Positions 12,518-27,469 of a DNA stretch of 62,733 nucleotides are shown piece by piece; positions within the stretch are counted from its first letter, which is position 1, and every line of letters begins with the position of its first letter. Origin of the DNA: an uncultured Mycoplasmatota bacterium (lineage in GTDB: Bacteria > Bacillota_I > Bacilli_A > RF39 > UBA660); the NCBI GenBank assembly GCA_900549325.1, contig UROI01000003.1, positions 1 to 62,733 of the forward strand. Reading direction: 5' to 3'. Position numbers and translations under genes: made by a program. The notes beneath the pieces were generated by a model that did no database searches, had not been told where the DNA came from, and saw only the letters and a list, made by a program, of their open reading frames with translations.

Positions 12518-12697
12518 ATATTATATTTCCTTCTTTCTATAGTTATATTATATCATTATTTTAATGGGTTTTATATTACAAGTTTGTAATGCAGAAGAAA
12601 AAAGACTTAGTACAACATATAATCATATTTCAAATAAATAAAGTATTATCATTTTAATATGATAATTTCTATTAATAATGAATAATAGAAATTTTTA

Positions 12698-12706
12698 TGA
12701 TATAAT
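12698..12706 (+). promoter_or_regulatory. Extended -10 element TGATATAAT upstream of the KAP NTPase gene
   Basis: Exact TGnTATAAT at 12698-12706, just upstream of SD GAGG (12713-12716). Implies a very short leader. Confidence 0.4.
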
Positions 12707-12715
12707 GTTGATGAG

Positions 12716-14050
12716 GTGATACATTTGAAAAAGTATGAACTTTTAACTAGTGACGATAATATATTTAACACAATTAACGATGACTGGTTAGGAAGAAACA
12801 GTAAGATAATTAATCTTATGAAATTATTAAATAATGTTAATGAAAACATTATAATATCAATTGATGGTGAATGGGGAACTGGTAAAACCTTTTTTATAAA
12901 ACAATTAATTTATATCTGCAATAATTACGATAAGATTGATAACATTAAAAATCATAAGGATTATGCTAAAGTGGAGGAGTTTTCAAAAAAGCATGTTGTA
13001 GTTTATTATAATGCTTGGGAAAACGATAATCATGATAATCCTTTAGAATCGCTAATTTATAATATTCTAAATGAATATCCTAAATATAAAAACCATATTG
13101 AAAATCCAGAAGAATTGTTTCAGGCGGTAAAGCCAATACTAAAAAATATTATTGAAAAAGGTAGTTTGGGATATATAACTAAAGACTGCTTTGAAAACTT
13201 AAAATCATTTGAAGATTTAGCTGATAGTATAGTTACAATCGAAGAAAAACAATCATCATTAAATAAGTTATTTAACAAAATAATTAAATCAGATCAAAGA
13301 GTATTATTAGTGGTTGATGAACTAGATAGATGCCGTCCAGATTATGCAGTAAAATCACTTGAAACATTAAAACATTTCTATAATAATTCTAAATTAAGCA
13401 TTATAGTTGTAACTAACAATAAACAATTGAGTCATACAATAAAAAAATATTATGGTAATGATTTTGATGGGTATAGTTATTTAGATAAAATCTATGATAG
13501 CATTATTACGCTTGGAATTGATAATTTAGATAATTATGTTAAAAAACATTGTAAGATTACACAGGCTACTAATTTACCAGAAAATATATCTTTTGAATTA
13601 TTTAAGTATTTAAATTTTTCATACAGAGAATGTAATAAATATATGTCAATGTACAGGATTGTTGAGCCATATACAAAAGTTAGAGACTCTTTTAATATGA
13701 ATAAGTTTTTATTTGAGGCAGACATTTTGTTACCAATGGCTTTAGCATTAAAAATTAAAAATATAAATAACTATAATAGTTTTGTTACTGGTATTGGCGA
13801 TGAAATAATAAAGTCATTTCTAGCATTTCTAAAAAATGATAATGATGAACTTGATTATATTAGATGGCTATCTGAACTTTTATCACCAAACGAAAATGAA
13901 ACTTTAGAAGAAACTTTTATTAGGAAATATAGATGTGTTTTTTCTAAGAGGACTAGCTATGATAATTTTCCATATCTTGAGGCCATTTCTATGCTAGGAA
14001 ATTCAATTAATTTTAATAATGATAATAGTCAATCAATAGGGATGGAATAA
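12716..14050 (+). CDS. KAP-family P-loop NTPase (soluble, no TM insert)
   Basis: IIISIDGEWGTGKTFF (Walker A), VVVYYNAWENDNHDNPLESLIY, LLVVDELDRCRPDYAVKSLETLKHF (Walker B plus KAP-typical DRC). The start may be TTG 12725 rather than GTG 12716. Confidence 0.8.
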   Translation: MIHLKKYELLTSDDNIFNTINDDWLGRNSKIINLMKLLNNVNENIIISIDGEWGTGKTFFIKQLIYICNNYDKIDNIKNHKDYAKVEEFSKKHVVVYYNAWENDNHDNPLESLIYNILNEYPKYKNHIENPEELFQAVKPILKNIIEKGSLGYITKDCFENLKSFEDLADSIVTIEEKQSSLNKLFNKIIKSDQRVLLVVDELDRCRPDYAVKSLETLKHFYNNSKLSIIVVTNNKQLSHTIKKYYGNDFDGYSYLDKIYDSIITLGIDNLDNYVKKHCKITQATNLPENISFELFKYLNFSYRECNKYMSMYRIVEPYTKVRDSFNMNKFLFEADILLPMALALKIKNINNYNSFVTGIGDEIIKSFLAFLKNDNDELDYIRWLSELLSPNENETLEETFIRKYRCVFSKRTSYDNFPYLEAISMLGNSINFNNDNSQSIGME

Positions 14051-14052
14051 TT

Positions 14053-15450
14053 ATGATTTATAAAGGTATATTTTATTTTGATAAAAAAAATCATCCTGGA
14101 GAATGTGAAATAGATGATAATAATCATATATACTTGACAATACATGAAAGCAACATAAACGGTTATAAGAAAAAAATAACTGGAATTGCCGGTAATGAGA
14201 CCTTAACATTATATAACTGTTGCTTAATTAGTAATGGAATAGGTTATTATAAGTATAGAATAAGTTATATTGTAAAAAATGGTATTAATATAAAGTATAA
14301 GAACGTAGATTTTAATAAACATATACAAAGTTTTAGATTTACTTTTAATCGTTTAGATGAATGGCTAGGTATTAAAACAATAATAAAAAGCAAAAATGAA
14401 ATTAAATTTAATATACCAAATGATATTCTATTATATAGTGATGATAAATTAAAAATTTATATAAAATATTTTGAAGAAAAATGTACTTTAACTGATACAT
14501 CTATTAGTAATCTTAGCATAGTACCATATATTTGTACAAAATCAACTTGTGTTATGAGCATAGAAAAGATTACAATGTATATTCAAATGATTACTAGGTT
14601 TTTTGCTTTACTAATTGGATATAGCGAGCAGGTAAGAACAATTAAATTTCATAAGATGTATAATTGGCAAAATATTATGGGAGATATCGAGGATGAAGTT
14701 GTAATAAATACAGACTTTAGCAATTGTTATTATAACAAAATTGGTTATTCTAAATTTAATTTAAGAACTTATTATAATGATATAAGTGAAAATATAATGA
14801 TGCTATTTAGTAAGTGGTATAATATTTATTTTAATAAGAGATATAAAGAGGCTATATTTTTTTACTATAGCCCATATAAGTCTCAAACTATAGAAGATGA
14901 TTTTTTAACAATAATGAAATGTCTTGAAAAATTTAGTTGTGCAACAGATAATATTAAAGAGAAAAAGAAAAAAAATAAGAACTTAAGAAATATTTTATGT
15001 GATTTTTACGATAAAAATAAAATAACTTTGGAAAAAACTATGAAAGATAGAGGTTTTAAAAAGGAATATATAAAAAATATAGAAGACATACATGAAGATA
15101 TAGCAAATGCTATTGTATATCGCTATAATACAAGAGTAAAATTATCAAGTAGAATAAAAGCACTTGATAAAAATAATATAATAACCAAGAGATTTAATTA
15201 CAAGCACTGTAAAAAGAAAGATGTTAATTGTAATGTTTATGATTATTTATCTAATACACGAAATTATTACACACATCTTGATACAAATGATTGTATTTTA
15301 AGAGATGAATATTTGCCAGGATACATTAGAAGGCTAGAAAAAATTTTTATAAATAATCTATTATTATTAATAATAAATGATGAAGACTATGTTAAAAAAG
15401 TCTTAGATAAAGATGAATATTTATCAATATATGATAATCGTGATATTTAA
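14053..15450 (+). CDS. HEPN-domain protein, ApeA-like (N-terminal ApeA_NTD-like region plus C-terminal Rx4H motif)
   Basis: 465 aa. ATG lies 2 nt after the KAP stop. C-terminal YLSNTRNYYTHLD contains the canonical HEPN R-N-x3-H. Length and N-terminus (GIFYFDKKNHPGECEID..IYLTI) recall ApeA. The CDS is solid; the family call is inference. Confidence 0.55.
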   Translation: MIYKGIFYFDKKNHPGECEIDDNNHIYLTIHESNINGYKKKITGIAGNETLTLYNCCLISNGIGYYKYRISYIVKNGINIKYKNVDFNKHIQSFRFTFNRLDEWLGIKTIIKSKNEIKFNIPNDILLYSDDKLKIYIKYFEEKCTLTDTSISNLSIVPYICTKSTCVMSIEKITMYIQMITRFFALLIGYSEQVRTIKFHKMYNWQNIMGDIEDEVVINTDFSNCYYNKIGYSKFNLRTYYNDISENIMMLFSKWYNIYFNKRYKEAIFFYYSPYKSQTIEDDFLTIMKCLEKFSCATDNIKEKKKKNKNLRNILCDFYDKNKITLEKTMKDRGFKKEYIKNIEDIHEDIANAIVYRYNTRVKLSSRIKALDKNNIITKRFNYKHCKKKDVNCNVYDYLSNTRNYYTHLDTNDCILRDEYLPGYIRRLEKIFINNLLLLIINDEDYVKKVLDKDEYLSIYDNRDI

Positions 15451-15519
15451 TTTAAACAATAATATTTATATCTATCTATTTTTATTGATAACAATATTGT
15501 TATTATGTTTTATTTTAAT

Positions 15520-15561
15520 AAAAGACTTAGCACATCTTAATGATGTTGTTAAGTCTTTTTT
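15520..15561. terminator. Bidirectional terminator between the convergent HEPN gene and the 141-aa gene
   Basis: aaaagactta...taagtctttt 10-bp outer stem plus inner acatc/gatgt stem. A-run on the 5' side and T-run on the 3' side. Confidence 0.7.
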
Positions 15562-15574
15562 AATTGTTTATCTG

Positions 15575-16000
15575 TTATTTATACTTATCTTCTTCCCATT
15601 CATCAGTAATAAGTTCATCATCATCTCGTTCTTCTGCTTCAACGAAATCCGCTGGACTCATTCTTTCTTCTTTAGCTATTCTTTTATCCTCTTCTGATAA
15701 TCCCCATAATTCTGCTTCTTTATCAAATTCTTCATCTTTATAATTTCTTTTTACTATTTTATTTGATTTAACATTTGTCTTCTTAAAAGATGACTCTGGA
15801 AAGTTAATATGTATTTTCTTTTTACTAAAAATATTATATATTGTTTGAAATAACCAAATTATAAAATAACAAAATAATTTAGTTATTTCAACCATCAAGA
15901 TAAAAATATAATAAAACATAATAGCCCCTATTTTAAAGATATACCAGACAAATATAAGAGGAAAAAATAATATATATAATAATGTTTTAATAGTAACCAC
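15575..16000 (-). CDS. Small membrane protein with strongly acidic C-terminal tail
   Basis: 141 aa. Two N-terminal TM helices, a K-rich linker, and C-terminus WGLSEEDKRIAKEERMSPADFVEAEERDDDELITDEWEEDKYK. The GTG start has poor SD spacing, so the start is uncertain. Confidence 0.4.
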   Translation of the reverse strand: MVTIKTLLYILFFPLIFVWYIFKIGAIMFYYIFILMVEITKLFCYFIIWLFQTIYNIFSKKKIHINFPESSFKKTNVKSNKIVKRNYKDEEFDKEAELWGLSEEDKRIAKEERMSPADFVEAEERDDDELITDEWEEDKYK

Positions 16001-16055: not shown

Positions 16056-17309
16056 TTAAAGTACCACACATTCATTTTTTTCTTGTAATAATATACATTT
16101 ATTACTATTTTGAAATTCAATAGGAATAAATTCTCCGCAATATTTATAATCTTCTTTTTTACTGCTTCTTTCAAACAGATAAACTTTAGTATGTTTATTA
16201 TATCCTAATATAATATCTCTGCATATTTGATTTGGTTTATGAACAAATTCAAGATACTTATACTTTTCTTCACTTTCATTTTGCAAAAAATATATTATTT
16301 TTTTATTATTCAACCATTTATCATCATATTCTCCTTCGGTTGTTTGTCCTTTTAAAATTAAAATATCATCCTTCTTATTATAATACATCCCCATCATTTG
16401 ATTAAAATTATTTGCTATTGCACATATAGTCATTGTGTTAACTAGTGAACCAATTTTTAAATCATTTATATTAGTATATTTTATATTAGTTTTATCATAC
16501 TCATTCATTATGTCAACAGCTGTCTTCAATCCATTATTGTGAATCAATTTATATTGTTCTTTTTTGATATCAAGAATACTTTGATTATTTAAAAACTTAA
16601 CAATGTCCCCATCATTAGGTAAAGATTTAATTTTTTGAATAAAAAGATTTATTGATTGACCATATTCATTATAAAACCTATAATTTAATTGCTTTTCATT
16701 ATCCAAGATCATTTCTTTTAATGATTTCTTCTTATTATTATCTGATATTTTTTTTGTTTCAGTTATATTATTACATATCATTGTGTCTGAATAATTGATG
16801 TTTTTAACTATATCTATGAAATTACCTACTAACTCTTTTTTTATTGATATTCCTTTGCCCCTGGTTCCATCGCTTTTTACCTTTCTTATATCAAGATATT
16901 CATTTCCATTTTCATATTTGATAAAATTTAATTCTATAAACACATTTGCCGAACTTCTTATTTTACCAATATGTTGAACCTGAGGATTTTTTTGTGGTTT
17001 CATTTCCTGTAATAATCTTTGACTATAGGAACTATTTTTTGTCATTCTTATATAATCTATTTTTTTAATAAATAACGTTGTTTTTTCTTCTCCTACACCT
17101 GTTAAACTTGGTATTCCCATTTTCAACTTGTTATAATCACTAAGTGATAATTTTTTTAAATCGTTCGTTGTTTTAATATTATTGTCAAATAAATATTCTT
17201 CAAGTAAATCATATTTCTTTTCGTTTAGTATACTACTAATATTTATTTCTTTTTCATCCAGTTCAACGTTATTAGTTCCCATTTGATTAATTAGACTCTT
17301 CAGTTCCAT
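16056..17309 (-). CDS. Predicted DNA-binding protein: HhH-like motif, PC4/YdbC-like ssDNA-binding segment, C-terminal DUF3427/PUA-like segment
   Basis: 417 aa, overlapping the GHKL gene stop by 23 nt. GIPSLTGVGEEKTTLFIKKI (HhH-like, aa 65-84). FIELNFIKYENGNEYLDIRKVKSDGTRGKGISIKKELVGNFIDIVKNI matches the PC4 pattern (..vdIREy....g.kGIsL..eqw..l). The C-terminus GMYYNKKDDILILKG...KVYLFERSSKKEDYKYCGEF resembles DUF3427-type modules. Confidence 0.55.
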   Translation of the reverse strand: MELKSLINQMGTNNVELDEKEINISSILNEKKYDLLEEYLFDNNIKTTNDLKKLSLSDYNKLKMGIPSLTGVGEEKTTLFIKKIDYIRMTKNSSYSQRLLQEMKPQKNPQVQHIGKIRSSANVFIELNFIKYENGNEYLDIRKVKSDGTRGKGISIKKELVGNFIDIVKNINYSDTMICNNITETKKISDNNKKKSLKEMILDNEKQLNYRFYNEYGQSINLFIQKIKSLPNDGDIVKFLNNQSILDIKKEQYKLIHNNGLKTAVDIMNEYDKTNIKYTNINDLKIGSLVNTMTICAIANNFNQMMGMYYNKKDDILILKGQTTEGEYDDKWLNNKKIIYFLQNESEEKYKYLEFVHKPNQICRDIILGYNKHTKVYLFERSSKKEDYKYCGEFIPIEFQNSNKCILLQEKNECVVL

Positions 17310-19527
17310 TGTCTACCACACTTTCGGTAATATACACTTGTAAGTTATCATTTATCATTCCGCTTATTAATATAGCGACTCTTTTTAGTTCTTCATTCTT
17401 TGCAACATCACTTAGTCTGTTTTCATCATCTTTAGAATCCTCTTTTATATGTAAAATTAAACTATAATATGCCATTTGCTTTATATATTCATCATTCAAG
17501 GCTTTTATTGACAAATCATCGTCTGTTCCTTTGGTAATATTTTCTTGAAGTTTTTTTAATGGTTTATTCTCCATGTTGATATATATTTCAATTGACTCTG
17601 TAGAATCCTTCAAAACACAAGGTAGTTCTTCATCATCACTAAAGAATTCTTCAAACTCCGTGCTATTCTTAAATACTGGTACTGTTGAAATTTTAGGTGG
17701 TTGCTTTGTTTGCTCATCTTTTGATTGATCGCTCTTTTCTTTATCTACAACTTTTATCATAATTGATGATGATAAATTTTCATCATCATACCCCTTAATA
17801 TACAACTTAAAGAAAATGTCATCTCCAACTTTTACATCGGGAGATAATTTGAAGTTTATAATTCCATGACCGTTTTTATAAAATTTAAATCCATCGAAAA
17901 TTAAAGCATTTTCATTTTCAAAAATGAAGCCAAGATTGTCTTCCATACTATACATCTCATGATCTGCATTAGAAGTATAGTTTAAAGCAAGGTCTTTATT
18001 TATTGGTAGTTCAAAATTCTCTTTATTTGAAATATTTAAAAATGTTGGAAATGCAAATAATTCTGGTAATTTTTGAGGATTGTTAGATTTTTGTTGTTTT
18101 GTACTAGGAATATCTTTGGAAACCTTTCCTATTCCACCTGTATTTAGAAAAACTCTCAATTTGTTTTCTATTTTTTTATTTAGTTCTTCACTCATATTTT
18201 CTGAACTTGCACTCAGCATTTGTTCTTTAAAATATTTATTCAAATCTATTAACTCTTGATCCTCCTGCAATAAGTCAACAACTTTCCTTCTTAATGCATC
18301 TGTATAATCATTATCTTGAAACTTTGCTCTATCAGAAGTAAACAAACGTGCTTTAATCCTGTCATCCATATTGTCACAATCAACATTAACAATTAAATGA
18401 TTTAATAAATATGGTTTATTAATTTTTTCAAAAAAATTAGAATTTTCATTTCCTTCTACCTGACCATTAATTGTATATAATACTGGTGTAGTTTTTTCGT
18501 TATAATTTTTATATGAATCTTTATCAGTAATAATCCAATAATTAATAGTAATAGTTCCGCCGAAAATATAATCTGCTATTATTCTATTATTATACTTTAC
18601 ATGTTCATTATTATTTAATCTTGAATTGCATCCTAGTGCAATTATTACATTATTGTGATTTTCAAAATTTGTTTTGTCAACAGAAATTCTGTTCTCAGTA
18701 ATTCTTATTGGTAAAATTGGATTGAATAATTTTTTATTAACAAAATGAAATATACTTTTATCACCTGGAGCTTTTGCACTACTTCTACCATATTGATTAA
18801 TGTTCATTTCTATATGTCTTACTAATGTTCCTGGTAAAAACTCATTATTTTTATCAATTACAGATATCGGACAACCAGTACTTTTTAAAACTAAGTATTT
18901 ATGTATTGGCGTTTTATAATCTAAATCATCAAATTCTTTTGTAATAGTAAATGAAATTCTGTTTGAATTATCTTTTTCCGGTATTGGTTTTGATATTATT
19001 AATGTATGTTTAGAAAATATATTAGCAGTTGAGCCTCCCTGTCCAAATGTTCCTGCAAGGTAAAACTTTCTTAATTTATTCCCCCCCTGTAAACTAAGAA
19101 TTGTTTTTCCAAATTCTTCACTACTTAGTCCTATACCATAATCTCTTATCTCTATTGTTGGTCTCCATTTTTTATTTGACTCTAAAACATTTAATTCTAC
19201 TAAAGACTTAAGGTTTTTATCAATTTCCTTAATATCATACTTAGATAGATCACCTTCTTTAATACCAAAATATTTTTCGGAAGACATTCGTGGATTTTTT
19301 AGTTGATTATCAGGGTTTAAATAATAATATTTTTCAATAACTGCATCTATTGCGTTAGTTAATCTCTCTATAATACCATTTTCACCACGCTCAAGCATTT
19401 GAAAAGTTGAATGATTTGACTCATTGTTGCCAATTGGAATCCATTCAGTTTCATATTTACTTTCTATTAATTTTATTAGTTCATCTATATCCTTAACTGT
19501 ATTTGCATTGAATACCTCTCTTAACAT
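17287..19527 (-). CDS. GHKL (Bergerat-fold, HATPase_c) ATPase, MORC/paraMORC-like, with a long uncharacterised C-terminal region
   Basis: 746 aa. N-box ERLTNAIDAV, G1 box IEIRDYGIGL, G2 box AGTFGQGGS. SD AGAGGTGA lies 5 nt upstream of the ATG. Confidence 0.75.
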   Translation of the reverse strand: MLREVFNANTVKDIDELIKLIESKYETEWIPIGNNESNHSTFQMLERGENGIIERLTNAIDAVIEKYYYLNPDNQLKNPRMSSEKYFGIKEGDLSKYDIKEIDKNLKSLVELNVLESNKKWRPTIEIRDYGIGLSSEEFGKTILSLQGGNKLRKFYLAGTFGQGGSTANIFSKHTLIISKPIPEKDNSNRISFTITKEFDDLDYKTPIHKYLVLKSTGCPISVIDKNNEFLPGTLVRHIEMNINQYGRSSAKAPGDKSIFHFVNKKLFNPILPIRITENRISVDKTNFENHNNVIIALGCNSRLNNNEHVKYNNRIIADYIFGGTITINYWIITDKDSYKNYNEKTTPVLYTINGQVEGNENSNFFEKINKPYLLNHLIVNVDCDNMDDRIKARLFTSDRAKFQDNDYTDALRRKVVDLLQEDQELIDLNKYFKEQMLSASSENMSEELNKKIENKLRVFLNTGGIGKVSKDIPSTKQQKSNNPQKLPELFAFPTFLNISNKENFELPINKDLALNYTSNADHEMYSMEDNLGFIFENENALIFDGFKFYKNGHGIINFKLSPDVKVGDDIFFKLYIKGYDDENLSSSIMIKVVDKEKSDQSKDEQTKQPPKISTVPVFKNSTEFEEFFSDDEELPCVLKDSTESIEIYINMENKPLKKLQENITKGTDDDLSIKALNDEYIKQMAYYSLILHIKEDSKDDENRLSDVAKNEELKRVAILISGMINDNLQVYITESVVDNGTEESN

Positions 19528-19860: not shown

Positions 19861-21030
19861 TTATTGTGCTTCATTAAACAGTTTTTCAGCCATTGTTTTA
19901 ATTACATCAACATTCACAGCATTTCCAAATTGTTTGTATGCTTGTTGATCATTCTTATTTGGAATAAATGTGTCAGGAAAACTCTGAAGTCTAGCTGCTT
20001 CTCTAACTGTTAGTCTTCTTTTATACTTACCTATTATTGGAATTTGTACCATTGCTACTAACGCAGGAAAGCATGTTGGTTTTTTAACCCTAATACCTGA
20101 CGGTCTAAATTGTATTATCCCATCCCATAACGATTTTATGCTATTACCAGCTTGCCATTCTAATTTTCTATGTGTTGGAGCAAATTCTTTTAAATAATTA
20201 TATTTTTCCATCCATCTATCTATAAACTCTTTATTATTGTTATATAAATTAATATTCTTATTTATGAAATCCTCTTTCCATTTTGGCAATTTTTCATCTT
20301 TAAAATATCCATTAAAATATACTGCCCATATTGGGAAACCAATAACTGTTTCTTTAATTCCTTTATAAAATTCATCCCACGCTGTTAAAACCATTTTTTC
20401 ATAATCTGAAATATAGTATTTATTTGACACTTTCTTTGTTTCTAGCACGGTTGAAATATCATTTTCTTCTTTTGACATCAATTCTGGCAGTTTTATATTT
20501 AAATCTTTATCAGCATTTTCTGGATCATATATACCCAAAATTACAACTCTTTCCCTTAATTGCGGGATACCTAATTGATGTGGGCTAATAATAATAGGTT
20601 CTTTTGTCAAACGATAGCCAATTTCTTTCAAATGTGAATAAATTGTATTCCATGTCTTTTTATTGTCATGTGATACTAAGTTTCTTACATTTTCTAAAAC
20701 TATATACTTTGTCTTATGATATTTTAAAATTCTCTCTATTTCAAAAAATAGCGTTCCTTTAGTTTCATCGTTGAATCCTAACTGTTTTCCAGCTTTAGAA
20801 AATGTTTGGCATGGGAAGCCAGCGCATAGAACGTCATGTTTGGGTATATCTTTCTCATCTATATCCCTAATATTGCAATCAGAATTAATACCATAGTTTT
20901 CATAATATGTTTCTATTGCATACTTATCAATTTCAGATGCAAATACACAATTTCCACCTAATTGTTCCATTGCCTGATGAAAGCCACCTATTCCAGCAAA
21001 TAAATCTATAAACTTAAAGTCCTTTTTCAT
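19861..21030 (-). CDS. dcm: DNA (cytosine-5)-methyltransferase
   Basis: Motif I FIDLFAGIGGF, motif IV GFPCQTFS, motif VI LENVRNL, motif VIII QLRERV, motif X QFGNAV. Confidence 0.92.
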   Translation of the reverse strand: MKKDFKFIDLFAGIGGFHQAMEQLGGNCVFASEIDKYAIETYYENYGINSDCNIRDIDEKDIPKHDVLCAGFPCQTFSKAGKQLGFNDETKGTLFFEIERILKYHKTKYIVLENVRNLVSHDNKKTWNTIYSHLKEIGYRLTKEPIIISPHQLGIPQLRERVVILGIYDPENADKDLNIKLPELMSKEENDISTVLETKKVSNKYYISDYEKMVLTAWDEFYKGIKETVIGFPIWAVYFNGYFKDEKLPKWKEDFINKNINLYNNNKEFIDRWMEKYNYLKEFAPTHRKLEWQAGNSIKSLWDGIIQFRPSGIRVKKPTCFPALVAMVQIPIIGKYKRRLTVREAARLQSFPDTFIPNKNDQQAYKQFGNAVNVDVIKTMAEKLFNEAQ

Positions 21031-21172: not shown

Positions 21173-22444
21173 ATGGCCAATTTAAAAAGTGAACAGTTGA
21201 GAAGCGACCTAGGTCTTGAAATAAACTATGATCAACCACTTTCAACTTCTGAAATGATGAAAAATATTATCAATATTCTTGGTAAAAGTAATTGCTATAT
21301 AGAAAAAGTTAATAATAAAAAGTTGCTTTTTTACAAACATAGTAATACAATTGAAGTACTATTACTTGCATCAATTACTTACATGGGAGGGAATGGTCAA
21401 CATCCGATTTATAAAAAAAGAATGCAATTAAAGAAATGGTATAAAGATATTGTGAATTATTATAGTAATAAATCAAATTATAATGTTAGATTCATTGGTG
21501 TATATCATTATCAAAATAATATTATTTTTGCAGAATTTAACAAAGATTCCTATGTTAAGAAAAAAATGAATTCTTCTGCCGCCCATGTTTATACCAATGA
21601 TTTGTATCAGGCAATGAAGGATGGTTCTTTTAAAAGAAAAGACAGAAATAAAAATGAAATTACTACAATCAAATACATTAAATTTAAAGACTATTTAGAT
21701 AATAACATGTCAAAATACAGTAATGATTTATTTAACATATTTACTTTATTTAATGAAGGCGATTTCTTTGGAAAATGGATAAGTGCAAAAGTTGCAATAC
21801 CAGAAATGCACAAAGAAAACTGGAATAAATGGAAAGAAACAGAGTGGCCAGGATGGTACCTAGAATTTAAAATGAATTCCTTCATCAAAGAGAAATGTCT
21901 TGAAAATAAAATCTTATATGTTGGTAGTTCTCATAAGCGTGCAGGAGAATTAGACTTTGACTTGTGGTTTGGTGAAGATAATTTTTATGGTGATTTAAAA
22001 GCAAGTGATATTGATAAAAAGGAAGCACCTGGAAATGATCAAAATAGTTTTATTGAATGTATCAACAAGTATAATAAATTTTGGTATATCATTTACGAAC
22101 ATAATACTATAAAAGATAATGAAACCAATAATTATGATGCAACTAGATTTAGAGCAAACTATATTAAAGATAATAATGAATGGCCACTTGGAAAACAATT
22201 TGATGAATTAAGTTATTATAAAAGAATGAAAAATTCTATTAAATTCATTAAGATGTATATAATTGAACTTAATAGAATTAATTTTAGAAATGTATTAAGT
22301 GACTTTAATCAGGGAAAGCAGCCCAGTGGAGATGCAAGGAATCCTAAATTTAAAATATCAAAGAAAAATATAGATAACTTTATTGTTTACGAGCAAGATT
22401 TTATACAGATTGAAGAGAAAAAATTGAATCATTGTCAGGAATAG
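21173..22444 (+). CDS. Candidate type II restriction endonuclease (PD-(D/E)XK-like), divergent from dcm
   Basis: 423 aa. GELDFDLWFGEDNFYGDLKAS gives D-x12-D-L-K. Divergent arrangement with a C5 MTase across a 142-bp shared promoter region. No family was recognised by eye. Confidence 0.5.
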   Translation: MANLKSEQLRSDLGLEINYDQPLSTSEMMKNIINILGKSNCYIEKVNNKKLLFYKHSNTIEVLLLASITYMGGNGQHPIYKKRMQLKKWYKDIVNYYSNKSNYNVRFIGVYHYQNNIIFAEFNKDSYVKKKMNSSAAHVYTNDLYQAMKDGSFKRKDRNKNEITTIKYIKFKDYLDNNMSKYSNDLFNIFTLFNEGDFFGKWISAKVAIPEMHKENWNKWKETEWPGWYLEFKMNSFIKEKCLENKILYVGSSHKRAGELDFDLWFGEDNFYGDLKASDIDKKEAPGNDQNSFIECINKYNKFWYIIYEHNTIKDNETNNYDATRFRANYIKDNNEWPLGKQFDELSYYKRMKNSIKFIKMYIIELNRINFRNVLSDFNQGKQPSGDARNPKFKISKKNIDNFIVYEQDFIQIEEKKLNHCQE

Positions 22445-24808: not shown

Positions 24809-27469
24809 TTATTTATTACTAACTATCTCATCTAATTTACTTCTTATAATACTTTCTTCTCTACTACCATTAGTAGTTAATCTTATTAATGGTATATTAT
24901 ATTTAGATAGTATATTATTCTTTAATATATCTCTTTCTTTTTGTTTATTATCTTCTTTATGATATTTATATCCATCTACTTCTACCGCTAATAATGGTAT
25001 TTTACTTATTTTATTATATATTAAGAAATCTATATGAGTATTATGATGAGAAGCATATTTTCTTTCTTCTTCCGTTAGTAATGTTTTATCTTTTATTAAT
25101 ATATTTACTGGATATCTAAAAGTAAATGTTAAGTCTTTATAATCTTCTAATACTTTATTTAATAAATGATACATGATATTTTCTGAATCATAGTCTGATA
25201 TCTTTTTATGTTTTTTAAAATAGTCTAATCTTTCTTTTTCATATTGTTTGTATAATAAATCGAATACTGAATATATATTACTTTCTTCTACTTCCATATT
25301 TATATATTTGGTATAATCTATAAAATCTTTTATATTTTGATTCTTTATATTATTACCAGTTACTATGAATATTAGTTCTTTCTTTGCTCTAGATATAGCT
25401 ACATTTAAGATATTAGAGTCCGCTACAAAGTCTGATATTTCATCATCTACTGTTGATATTATTATGGCATCTTTTTCTCTACCTTGAAACTTATGAACTG
25501 TACTTACTTCTATATCTTGGATATTTTGTTTTATTAAATCTACTTGATTATTATATGGGGCTATTATTCCTATATCATTAGTTTTTATCTTTGGTAGTAT
25601 TTCTTTTATTATATCTAATTGTCTTTGACTTGTATTATCTCTTTTATGATTTCCTTTATTGGTTTTTATTACTTTTATAACATCTTGCTCATCTTTATCT
25701 TCAGTCATTATTACTAGTTCATTATTATAGAACTTTTTATTACAGAAGTTTATTATTTTAGGATGACATCTATAGTGTTCTTTTAACATTACTTTTGGTA
25801 CTTCTTCTATGATATTTTTAACACTACTTAAGAAACTGTTTAATGAATAACTATAACCATTATCTATATTGTATTCTTTGAATATTTTTTCTGTCTTTTC
25901 TTTTATTATATCTGATACAACATTTGGTAGTTGTTTTTCATCTCCTATTACAACAGCGTATTTGGCTGATGATAATGCTAATAGGCCTGTTACAACATCT
26001 ATTTGACTTGATTCATCCATTATTATATAGTCAAACTTAAAATCTTCTTTGAAAGTATTTCTTGATGAGTAGGTTGTGCTTAGTATAACTGGATAATCCT
26101 TTATAAAATTAGTACTATTTTTCTTTATTTCTTGATATGTATATTTTTTTCTTGGTTCTTTGTATTTTTGTGATAGGTATTTTTTTAGATAAGTCATTGA
26201 TGAGTTTATAAAGGCTGTTTCTATATATTTATTTTTTTCTACAAAGGATTGTTCTTTGGTTATTTGTTCTTCTAAGGATTTTATTTGTGTTTGGTATAGA
26301 TTATTTTGAATTGTATTTATTATTATTTCAATATTATTTTTATATAATGAGAAGTCTCCTATTTGATATATGAATATATATTTTAATTTATTTAATAATG
26401 TTAATTTATCGGTGTTTATCAATTCATTCCATAATTTTTGCAAGTTATTTGGATTTATTCTTGTTAGTTCTATAAGGTTAATGTTCTGATTTTTCATGTA
26501 TTCTTTAAAGTATTTGTATTCTAGTGTTAGGTCATTTTTACTTTGAGTTAGTATGGCTATCTTTTGTCTACTGGTATAGATTTGTTTTACTATGCTATTG
26601 TTATTTTTTATTACATTGGTTATATCTTCAATATTTATATTTTCGTACTCTTTAAACGATGGAATGTTATCTGTTTGGTTTTCTATAAAATTATTTTTAT
26701 TGGCGCTTTTTCCTAAGAGTGCTTCAAAGAAGTCTAGGTTGTATTTTTTTAGTTTCTCTTCGATGTTTTCGATAGCAGCATTATTATTTGATACTACTTG
26801 ACAGTTCATATTTCTTATTAGTATATTGGCTATGATATTTAGTATTGTTTGTGTCTTGCCTGTTCCTGGAGGACCCTCAATAACACTTACTTTATTATTT
26901 ATAGCATTTTCTACGGCTTTATACTGACTAGAATTACAACCAAAGGGAAATATTAGAAAGTCTATGTCATTTCCTTTTATTATACTATTTGATAGTTTTA
27001 GATAGTTTGATAATGCTGTATCTAGATTATCTACTTCTACTTTCTTCATCTGCTCACTTAGTATCTTCTTTCCATCCTCGGTACTAAGTGATGTTATGTC
27101 AGCGGCCTTTTGCATGTATTCTATTACATCTTTGTTATTGCTTATTATTTTTACTTGGGTATCTAGGTAGTCTTGATGTGTATTATTGTTTAAAATCATG
27201 TGGTAGTAATAGTTATTTCCGTAGTTAAATTCATAGACTTCTTTTATATCTTTTACTTTAATGTTATTTATGAAGATGTTATATTTTGTTAGGTCTATTT
27301 GTTCTGAAACTGTTAAATGCTTTACTCTATATGCTTGATAATTGTAAAACTTACTACTATTTTTGTATTTTATTACGTAGGTATAGTTGATGTGGTTATA
27401 CCTGCAATAGGATATTTTGGGTGTTACTATTTCGTTATCGATGATTATCATTTCTTTTCTTGGGTCCAT
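24809..27469 (-). CDS. Upf1/DNA2-like SF1 helicase (AAA_11/AAA_12) with unknown N-terminal domain and C-terminal DUF2726-like nuclease-fold domain
   Basis: 886 aa. VIEGPPGTGKTQT, IIMDESSQ, VIGDEKQLPN, HYRCHPKIINF, VSTVHKFQGREKDAIIIS, VAISRAKKEL. C-terminus HIDFLIYNKISKIPLLAVEVDGYKYH...ERDILKNNILSKYNIPLIRL. Confidence 0.85.
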   Translation of the reverse strand: MDPRKEMIIIDNEIVTPKISYCRYNHINYTYVIKYKNSSKFYNYQAYRVKHLTVSEQIDLTKYNIFINNIKVKDIKEVYEFNYGNNYYYHMILNNNTHQDYLDTQVKIISNNKDVIEYMQKAADITSLSTEDGKKILSEQMKKVEVDNLDTALSNYLKLSNSIIKGNDIDFLIFPFGCNSSQYKAVENAINNKVSVIEGPPGTGKTQTILNIIANILIRNMNCQVVSNNNAAIENIEEKLKKYNLDFFEALLGKSANKNNFIENQTDNIPSFKEYENINIEDITNVIKNNNSIVKQIYTSRQKIAILTQSKNDLTLEYKYFKEYMKNQNINLIELTRINPNNLQKLWNELINTDKLTLLNKLKYIFIYQIGDFSLYKNNIEIIINTIQNNLYQTQIKSLEEQITKEQSFVEKNKYIETAFINSSMTYLKKYLSQKYKEPRKKYTYQEIKKNSTNFIKDYPVILSTTYSSRNTFKEDFKFDYIIMDESSQIDVVTGLLALSSAKYAVVIGDEKQLPNVVSDIIKEKTEKIFKEYNIDNGYSYSLNSFLSSVKNIIEEVPKVMLKEHYRCHPKIINFCNKKFYNNELVIMTEDKDEQDVIKVIKTNKGNHKRDNTSQRQLDIIKEILPKIKTNDIGIIAPYNNQVDLIKQNIQDIEVSTVHKFQGREKDAIIISTVDDEISDFVADSNILNVAISRAKKELIFIVTGNNIKNQNIKDFIDYTKYINMEVEESNIYSVFDLLYKQYEKERLDYFKKHKKISDYDSENIMYHLLNKVLEDYKDLTFTFRYPVNILIKDKTLLTEEERKYASHHNTHIDFLIYNKISKIPLLAVEVDGYKYHKEDNKQKERDILKNNILSKYNIPLIRLTTNGSREESIIRSKLDEIVSNK

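Follow-up and report, generated by a model that had tools for sequence, protein, structure and literature searches.

We describe here a two-gene operon on the plus strand of a 62,733-nucleotide (nt) stretch of DNA from an uncultured Mycoplasmatota bacterium (contig UROI01000003.1; the whole of this stretch is called the window), in which a gene for a soluble KAP-family P-loop NTPase (12725–14050) is followed by a gene for a 465-amino-acid (aa) ApeA-like HEPN protein (14053–15450). With a probability that we put at roughly 0.55, the two are normally self-sufficient defence genes that were joined once into one operon, within a shallow lineage of uncultured gut Bacilli of low GC content, inside a defence island. 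The simplest account of the sequence comparisons is that the join was single and fairly recent, and that the two genes have been inherited and moved together since.

On this account, the ApeA-like protein would be a self-contained sensor-effector. Its beta-rich ApeA_NTD1 domain and its middle domain would keep the HEPN RNase (R403/H408) switched off and release it on an infection cue. Once active, the RNase would cleave RNA and halt phage growth; its target, if characterised ApeA is a guide, would be phage RNA or the anticodon loops of tRNA. The KAP protein, which is soluble, would be a separate defence protein driven by nucleoside triphosphate (NTP), of a kind lately found to protect as a single gene. 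A single promoter (~12650–12712) would serve both genes, and a single terminator (15515–15563) would close the transcript. Since the ApeA-like gene would then lack a separate promoter, it and the KAP gene would travel and diverge together as a cassette of ~2.8 kb. We infer that the HEPN domain is an active RNase, which RNA it cuts, that the pair acts against phage and that the two proteins are independent.

Architecture of the two proteins and layout of the operon

The KAP protein, 441 aa in length, is identified by both Pfam and PADLOC. KAP_NTPase (PF07693) matches residues 29–265 (E = 6.4e-33; 114.7 bits against a cut-off of 20), as an earlier, sequence-only reading of the locus had anticipated, and PDC-S20, the best PADLOC match, covers residues 4–395, nearly the whole protein (E = 6.9e-45). 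The Walker A motif GEWGTGKT (residues 48–55; 12866–12889, plus strand) and the Walker B region VVDELDRCRPDY (residues 196–207; 13310–13345, plus strand), which includes VVDELDRC, translate exactly as that reading had quoted them. Specifically, Walker A residues G48, W50, G51, G53 and K54 and Walker B residues D198, E199, D201, R202, C203 and P205 are invariant in an alignment of 17 homologues (A2).

No transmembrane segment is predicted in the KAP protein, the highest 19-residue Kyte–Doolittle mean being 1.19, which bears out the earlier claim that the transmembrane insertion of many KAP proteins is missing. In the AlphaFold2 (AF2) model (predicted local distance difference test score, pLDDT, 80), the insert consists of soluble helices, and the C-terminal extension is helical, with no separate effector-like region. 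Hydropathy and model together indicate that the window protein falls in the soluble subset of KAP proteins; the missing transmembrane insertion does not bar it from the family. The best PDB folds for the model are the RADAR ATPase RdrA (E = 3e-5), to which the likeness is weak (TM score 0.37–0.43, 12–15% identity), followed by ORC/Cdc6 AAA+ proteins. A sequence search of the PDB with the KAP family profile returned no match.

The 465-aa protein is assigned by Pfam, PADLOC and its AF2 model (pLDDT 87.9; predicted TM score, pTM, 0.84). ApeA_NTD1 (PF18862) matches over positions 2–271 of the 271 in the profile (E = 2.8e-12; 47.1 bits against a cut-off of 25.5), and HEPN_Apea (PF18739) matches the window protein slightly below its cut-off (E = 7e-4; 20.5 against 24.4 bits). 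HEPN_Apea also matches 18 of 21 aligned family members at E ≤ 0.01 (best 4.8e-9), so that this assignment, as far as profile matches go, is sound at the level of the family and marginal for the single window sequence. The catalytic motif NTRNYYTH (R403-x4-H408; 15253–15276, plus strand) reads in translation exactly as the sequence-only reading gave it. Across 21 homologues, the most distant of which have 38% identity, T402, R403, T407 and H408 never vary, and conservation of N404, Y405 and Y406 is 90% or higher. The protein comprises a beta-rich ApeA_NTD1 domain (about residues 1–170), a helical HEPN_Apea domain (about residues 281–453) and, between them, a mixed middle domain. ApeA-NTD1 was originally described as "mostly beta strands" (Anantharaman et al. 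2013, PMC3710099), and the predicted model agrees.

The best PADLOC match of the ApeA-like protein is PDC-S58 (E = 7.5e-13), which is also matched by 14 of the 21 family members. The PADLOC "Cas13-ApeA" models, which we took as its ApeA-type HEPN models, do not match the window protein at E ≤ 1 and match four of the 21 relatives (best E = 5.2e-12). A sequence search of the PDB with the family profile gave no match, and a Foldseek search of the PDB with the model gave none at E ≤ 0.001, the published ApeA structures included; the HEPN fold therefore stands without structural confirmation, and the protein is ApeA-like by HEPN family only. The earlier suggestion that it recalls ApeA thus holds in part. 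ApeA_NTD1 and HEPN_Apea similarity was found, as had been predicted, and the protein, judged from these comparisons, is ApeA-like at the HEPN-family level and is no canonical ApeA, its N-terminal domain being predicted to be beta-rich.

The listed open reading frame of the KAP gene runs from 12716 to 14050 on the plus strand. Translation most likely begins at TTG 12725 rather than at the in-frame GTG 12716, because a GAGGTG Shine–Dalgarno sequence (12713–12718, the ribosome-binding site read from the sequence) lies just upstream and because P0033, a 100% identical protein of 441 aa, begins there. At the gene junction (14048–14055), the TAA stop codon (14048–14050) is followed by TT and by the ATG of the ApeA-like gene at 14053, in accord with the 2-nt distance given by the sequence-only reading. 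The same distance is found in L091, while it is 20 nt in L090, 17 nt in L092, 20 nt in L008–L010, 17 nt in L011 and 15 nt in L012. An alignment of eight loci (A3) reveals that an ancestral TAA codon of the KAP gene, ~18 nt upstream, has been lost in the window and L091, adding six codons. A conserved role of the 2-nt gap in coupling was considered and rejected, because the relatives in this alignment have 15–20 nt.

DNA homology with L008 and L012, which lie in other flanking contexts, begins at 12650, and the leader with the probable promoter region of the cassette accordingly spans 12650–12724. An extended −10-like box, TGATATAAT, can be read at ~12698–12706, and on these grounds a promoter driving both genes is placed, by inference, at ~12650–12712; a promoter consensus scan was uninformative in this AT-rich DNA (42 sites, 38 expected; the G+C content of the window is ~25%). 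The conserved leader also contains an imperfect 30-nt inverted repeat (12645–12674 and 12683–12712; 77% complementary, 8-nt spacer), which lies just 5′ of the KAP ribosome-binding site and could serve as an operator or a regulatory hairpin.

Downstream of the pair, an AT-rich hairpin between A and T runs occupies 15515–15563. Its predicted folding energy is −19.8 kcal/mol (z = −5.8), and none of 200 shuffled sequences is equally stable; a consensus terminator scan, which is stricter, missed it as G–C pairs are too few. The hairpin is probably a bidirectional intrinsic terminator, shared by the operon and a convergent minus-strand gene (15575–16000), and fits the one that the sequence-only reading had placed 3′ of the pair. 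Its 5′ arm is the second copy of an imperfect 20-nt direct repeat (AAAAGACTTAG...; 12600–12619 and 15520–15539; 17 of 20 positions identical, 11 exact). The two copies flank the cassette, each 50–70 nt beyond its conserved boundaries, and we rejected a target-site duplication for this reason; the repeat may be due to chance or be a remnant of an insertion site.

Occurrence of the pair and of its solo relatives

The ApeA-like subfamily consists of 32 clusters (90% identity) among 5.8 billion proteins, and it is truly small, because a profile-based repeat of the search gave the same 32 proteins. In a representative library, 258 proteins match the ApeA-like protein at E ≤ 1e-3. A metagenome scan for relatives of this protein gave six loci, and a scan of viral contigs gave none.

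An adjacent upstream KAP gene occurs only where the ApeA-like protein is at least 75% identical, and the KAP protein at least 82% identical, to that of the window. The paired members are the window, L091, L090, L092, L008–L010, L011 and L012, and the closest loci come from metagenome-assembled genomes of human and animal guts that carry the labels uncultured Bacilli, Tenericutes or Mollicutes. Within this clade, the pair is a real unit. Of the adjacency in other genomes that the sequence-only reading had set as a check, a part is found: it recurs in close relatives only, in about three flanking contexts. The pairing of this ATPase with this effector across diverse lineages, which a co-occurrence check was meant to reveal, is not seen, and the pair is confined to one clade.

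Outside the pair clade, none of the ten sampled contexts of ApeA-like genes (38–61% identity and further) has an adjacent KAP gene. Specifically, the gene for P0009 (61%) starts 8 nt after aspS in a row of housekeeping genes, that for P0012 (60%) follows genes for MetRS and an acetyltransferase, that for P0015 (58%) adjoins an Abi_2 gene and an integrase element, and that for P0016 (57%) lies between polysaccharide-synthesis genes, which precede it, and a NERD gene, which follows. The gene for P0029 (42%) precedes a YhcG nuclease gene, that for P0155 follows a DpnII restriction-enzyme gene, and that for P0163 lies within a type IV secretion conjugative element. Near the gene for P0153, an unlike KAP gene encoding 982 aa is found 2.3 kb away, with four genes between. 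P0027 (48%) and P0159 are likewise encoded without an adjacent KAP gene.

In 5 of about 8 independent contexts, ApeA-like relatives directly follow tRNA-related genes, which is seemingly above chance. The neighbours are genes for AspRS, MetRS, GlxRS, TrpRS and a TRAM/tRNA-U5 methyltransferase (L098, 2456–5604; L004, 3498–7398; L001, 4384–7404; L008, 4461–9395; and the P0027 locus). This adjacency could reflect insertion hot-spots or a link to tRNA biology, canonical ApeA being known to cleave tRNA anticodon loops.

One locus of the pair clade, L093, has lost most of the KAP gene. Its ApeA-like gene is intact (98% DNA identity to L092) and stands behind a 435-nt KAP remnant without the P-loop, which corresponds to residues 289–434 (the last 146); the NTPase domain is gone. 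The 5′ two-thirds of the KAP gene and the upstream DNA are replaced (L093, 1757–4983) by an EPSP_synthase-family gene, probably murA, and mreB on the opposite strand. Either a deletion or rearrangement has occurred here naturally, or the contig is an assembly chimera.

Paired and solo ApeA-like proteins are equal in length and architecture. If the KAP protein had taken over sensing, a relaxed constraint on the N-terminal domain of the ApeA-like protein might be a sign of it; such relaxation is not seen. In the paired clade, identity is 0.86 in the N-terminal domain as against 0.79 in the HEPN domain, and solo clades likewise have an N-terminal domain at least as conserved as the HEPN domain.

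The view from the KAP side is similar. A word search gave 1519 matches for the KAP subfamily, and an ApeA-like gene lies beside the KAP gene in two of 79 distinct genome loci, L011 and L012, which both belong to the pair clade; it is absent from the other 77. P0040, a KAP protein of 75% identity, is encoded solo, without an ApeA-like gene. The neighbours of the KAP genes vary and are often defence genes, including those for GmrSD (type IV restriction), Fic, DUF6904, Mrr, YhcG and NERD proteins, a reverse transcriptase and an OLD-like ATPase. A deaminase gene that overlaps the KAP gene downstream in L023 and L024 was considered as an effector and rejected, its size and Pfam matches fitting housekeeping TadA.

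Distant KAP members (26–30% identity) in Collinsella, Olsenella and Actinomyces are followed, 8–9 nt downstream, by a GmrSD-type type IV restriction-enzyme gene, and in Candidatus Onthousia a GmrSD gene lies 195 nt downstream of the gene for a KAP protein of 64% identity (L062, 1460–4944; L064–L081, 5977–9435; L072; L014, 6001–9342). As a true KAP partnership, this adjacency, which recurs across phyla, may have more to recommend it than the pairing with the ApeA-like gene.

Taken from both sides, these distributions do not bear out the pairing as the obligate-looking one that the sequence-only reading described. The term obligate is unsupported because relatives of each gene are almost all solo (ten ApeA-like contexts without a KAP gene; 77 of 79 KAP loci, and P0040, without an ApeA-like gene) and because L093 has lost the KAP NTPase domain.

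Independence or integration of the two proteins

Several observations weigh against two independently acting proteins. DNA homology between contexts spans 12713 (or 12650) to ~15450, coinciding with the outer limits of the two genes, and the resulting ~2.8-kb cassette is found in about three flanking contexts: the first holds the window, L090 and L091, the second L092, L011, L093 and L094, and the third L008, to which L012 is partly related. Furthermore, the synonymous divergence (dS) of the one gene follows that of the other across pairwise comparisons of loci, up to ~0.7–0.85 (KAP/ApeA-like values of 0.065/0.096, 0.24/0.22, 0.43/0.45 and 0.70/0.72, for example), and the ratio of nonsynonymous to synonymous divergence (dN/dS) is 0.11–0.32 in both genes, indicating purifying selection on each. 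Persistence of the cassette, through a dS of about 0.8 and several relocations, could reflect selection for cooperation beyond mere co-transcription. In addition, the KAP protein, with its 441 aa, contains no recognisable effector domain, which fits poorly with a solo defence protein; its nearest fold, RdrA, is the ATPase of a two-gene system; and RADAR (RdrA ATPase and RdrB deaminase) and QatABCD (with the KAP ATPase QatA) are precedents for a KAP-like or STAND-like ATPase that works with a separately encoded effector. Finally, L093 is one metagenomic contig, and its truncation is possibly a recent or a chimeric event.

One alternative is an integrated two-gene system. In such a system, by analogy with characterised ones, the KAP protein, as sensor or switch, would oligomerise in response to a phage cue, and its NTP binding or hydrolysis would activate or tune the HEPN RNase; the pair would be a new two-component variant of formerly solo parts and would follow the logic of RdrA/RdrB in RADAR or of QatA in QatABCD. 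The precise cassette boundaries, the co-divergence to a dS of ~0.8 and the likeness to RdrA all speak for it, as does the intergenic spacing of 2–20 nt throughout the clade, and in the window and L091 the KAP frame has lengthened until 2 nt separate it from the ATG, which would favour translational coupling. Tight spacing is weak evidence, because these genomes are compact: in L098, for instance, 8 nt lie between aspS and a solo ApeA-like gene downstream of it. Against integration stand the single, shallow origin of the pairing, with ten ApeA-like contexts, 77 of 79 KAP loci and P0040 unpaired, the complete and conserved N-terminal domain of the ApeA-like protein, and the retention of the ApeA-like gene in L093 without the KAP NTPase domain. 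Moreover, a shared promoter alone also predicts co-transfer and co-divergence. We regard an integrated system as a possibility to be held tentatively, at clearly less than even odds.

In a related alternative, a once autonomous ApeA-like RNase may, in this clade, have been captured by a soluble KAP protein to give a true two-component system, in which KAP's NTP-dependent sensing or oligomerisation would now gate or broaden activation of the RNase. We consider this capture possible and, on balance, doubtful; if true, the locus would be an evolutionary snapshot of single-gene defences merging into multi-gene systems.

It is very unlikely that the pair resembles a toxin–antitoxin module, in which the KAP protein, as antitoxin or chaperone, would neutralise an otherwise toxic HEPN RNase. 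Partners often restrain HEPN RNases, as in HepT/MNT and PrrC/EcoprrI (reviewed in bioRxiv 10.64898/2026.02.22.705581), and the upstream KAP gene is tightly linked. However, solo ApeA-like genes with the invariant R and H occur in at least ten contexts without a KAP gene, L093 keeps an intact ApeA-like gene although the KAP NTPase domain is lost, and the KAP subfamily is itself mostly solo. On the solo homologues and L093, we rejected the KAP protein as an essential antitoxin.

Equally improbable is a role of the ApeA-like RNase outside defence, in housekeeping or stress-related metabolism of tRNA or other RNA, with incidental adjacency of the KAP gene: the tRNA-related neighbours described above point that way, but the patchy, strain-variable distribution (32 clusters among 5.8 billion proteins), the neighbouring Abi_2, NERD, YhcG and DpnII restriction-enzyme genes, integrases and conjugative element, the listing of the family as a defence candidate in PADLOC and the location of the pair in a defence island argue against it.

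Our preferred reading is that two self-sufficient defence genes share one operon. Each of them adds a member to a catalogued candidate family: PDC-S58 has an ApeA-type HEPN on a distinct beta-rich N-terminal domain, and PDC-S20 is a KAP NTPase that is short and soluble and in which no effector is apparent. As both genes come from catalogued candidate families, the cassette is a compact construct for testing both. With its paired loci, solo sister lineages and one KAP truncation, the clade would be a convenient natural experiment on whether operon fusion brings interdependence or synergy. If the proteins act independently, the operon is an ordinary component of a defence island.

Defence-island setting and comparison with known systems

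Upstream of the pair is a minus-strand module of the BceRS/AB type (response regulator, histidine kinase, ABC ATPase and FtsX permease), the Bce module that the sequence-only reading had recognised there. Across the terminator are two minus-strand genes that encode 417 aa (16056–17309) and 746 aa (17287–19527), overlap by 23 nt and have no match in Pfam, PADLOC or NCBIfam. They share their strand with a gene for a C5 DNA methylase and may be an uncharacterised defence pair. In the 746-aa protein, motifs resembling those of GHKL/Bergerat ATPases can be discerned by eye (ERLTNAIDA, RDYGIGLS and GTFGQGGS).

The methylase gene, of the type II, Dcm-type class (19861–21030, minus strand), is divergent from a type II restriction-enzyme gene (21173–22444, plus strand; PADLOC REase_II, Pfam MTaX1). 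A minus-strand gene for a superfamily 1 (SF1) helicase with DUF2726, similar to MkoA/MkoC of Mokosh, follows at 24809–27469; it lies within 12 kb of the pair, as does the restriction–modification set. Gene content thus marks 12.7–27.5 kb of the window (~15 kb) as a defence island, and the operon-like arrangement and defence setting proposed for the pair prove right, with the restriction–modification pair and the MkoA/MkoC-like helicase nearby.

ApeA is reportedly a single-gene defence, as described by Gao et al. in 2020. Like ApeA, the window protein is one polypeptide with a C-terminal Apea-type HEPN domain, an R-x4-H motif and a large non-catalytic N-terminal region, and is found in defence contexts. 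The ApeA proteins characterised in 2026 preprints, Ec1-4ApeA and Thr1ApeA, work as single proteins: they sense through a ligand pocket of their own and cut either phage RNA or tRNAs at the anticodon loop (bioRxiv 10.64898/2026.01.26.701840; 10.64898/2026.03.20.713152). The cryo-EM structures of E. coli ApeA proteins are described as predominantly alpha-helical, with a catenin-like N-terminal domain, and the HEPN region of Ec2ApeA alone comprises residues 335–583 (bioRxiv 10.64898/2026.01.26.701840). In the Ec and Thr ApeA structures, the alpha-helical N-terminal and Mid domains form the ligand pocket, and the protein assembles into a doughnut-shaped decamer or dodecamer. The window protein, in contrast, is shorter (465 aa), and its N-terminal domain is predicted to be beta-rich, a difference drawn by setting the AF2 model against the published alpha-helical description. 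Furthermore, it is encoded second in an operon, behind a KAP gene, while its relatives are solo in ten contexts.

PDC-S58, the best PADLOC match of the ApeA-like protein, has been reported from Streptococcus thermophilus ST55, where the gene is alone and encodes ~471 aa (PMC11514479). It is defined as a single gene, whereas in the window it comes second in an operon; we found no experimental test of PDC-S58 in the literature.

For KAP NTPase proteins of gut bacteria, one gene is enough to protect, and protection depends on Walker B (PMC13552941). Published work on ApeA and on KAP proteins supports autonomy of both families. EF_KAP, which has been validated, contains two transmembrane helices and, at the C-terminus, a region of 322 aa (PMC13552941). 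Unlike EF_KAP, the window KAP protein is soluble, 441 aa long and devoid of a separate effector-like region.

In comparison with RADAR and QatABCD, the QatA profile matches the KAP protein partially, over ~90 residues around Walker B (35 bits against a cut-off of 600), and no homologue of RdrB, QatB, QatC or QatD is present. Instead, the partner of the KAP protein is a HEPN RNase that appears to be autonomous in its relatives, and PADLOC files the two genes as separate single-gene candidates, PDC-S20 and PDC-S58.

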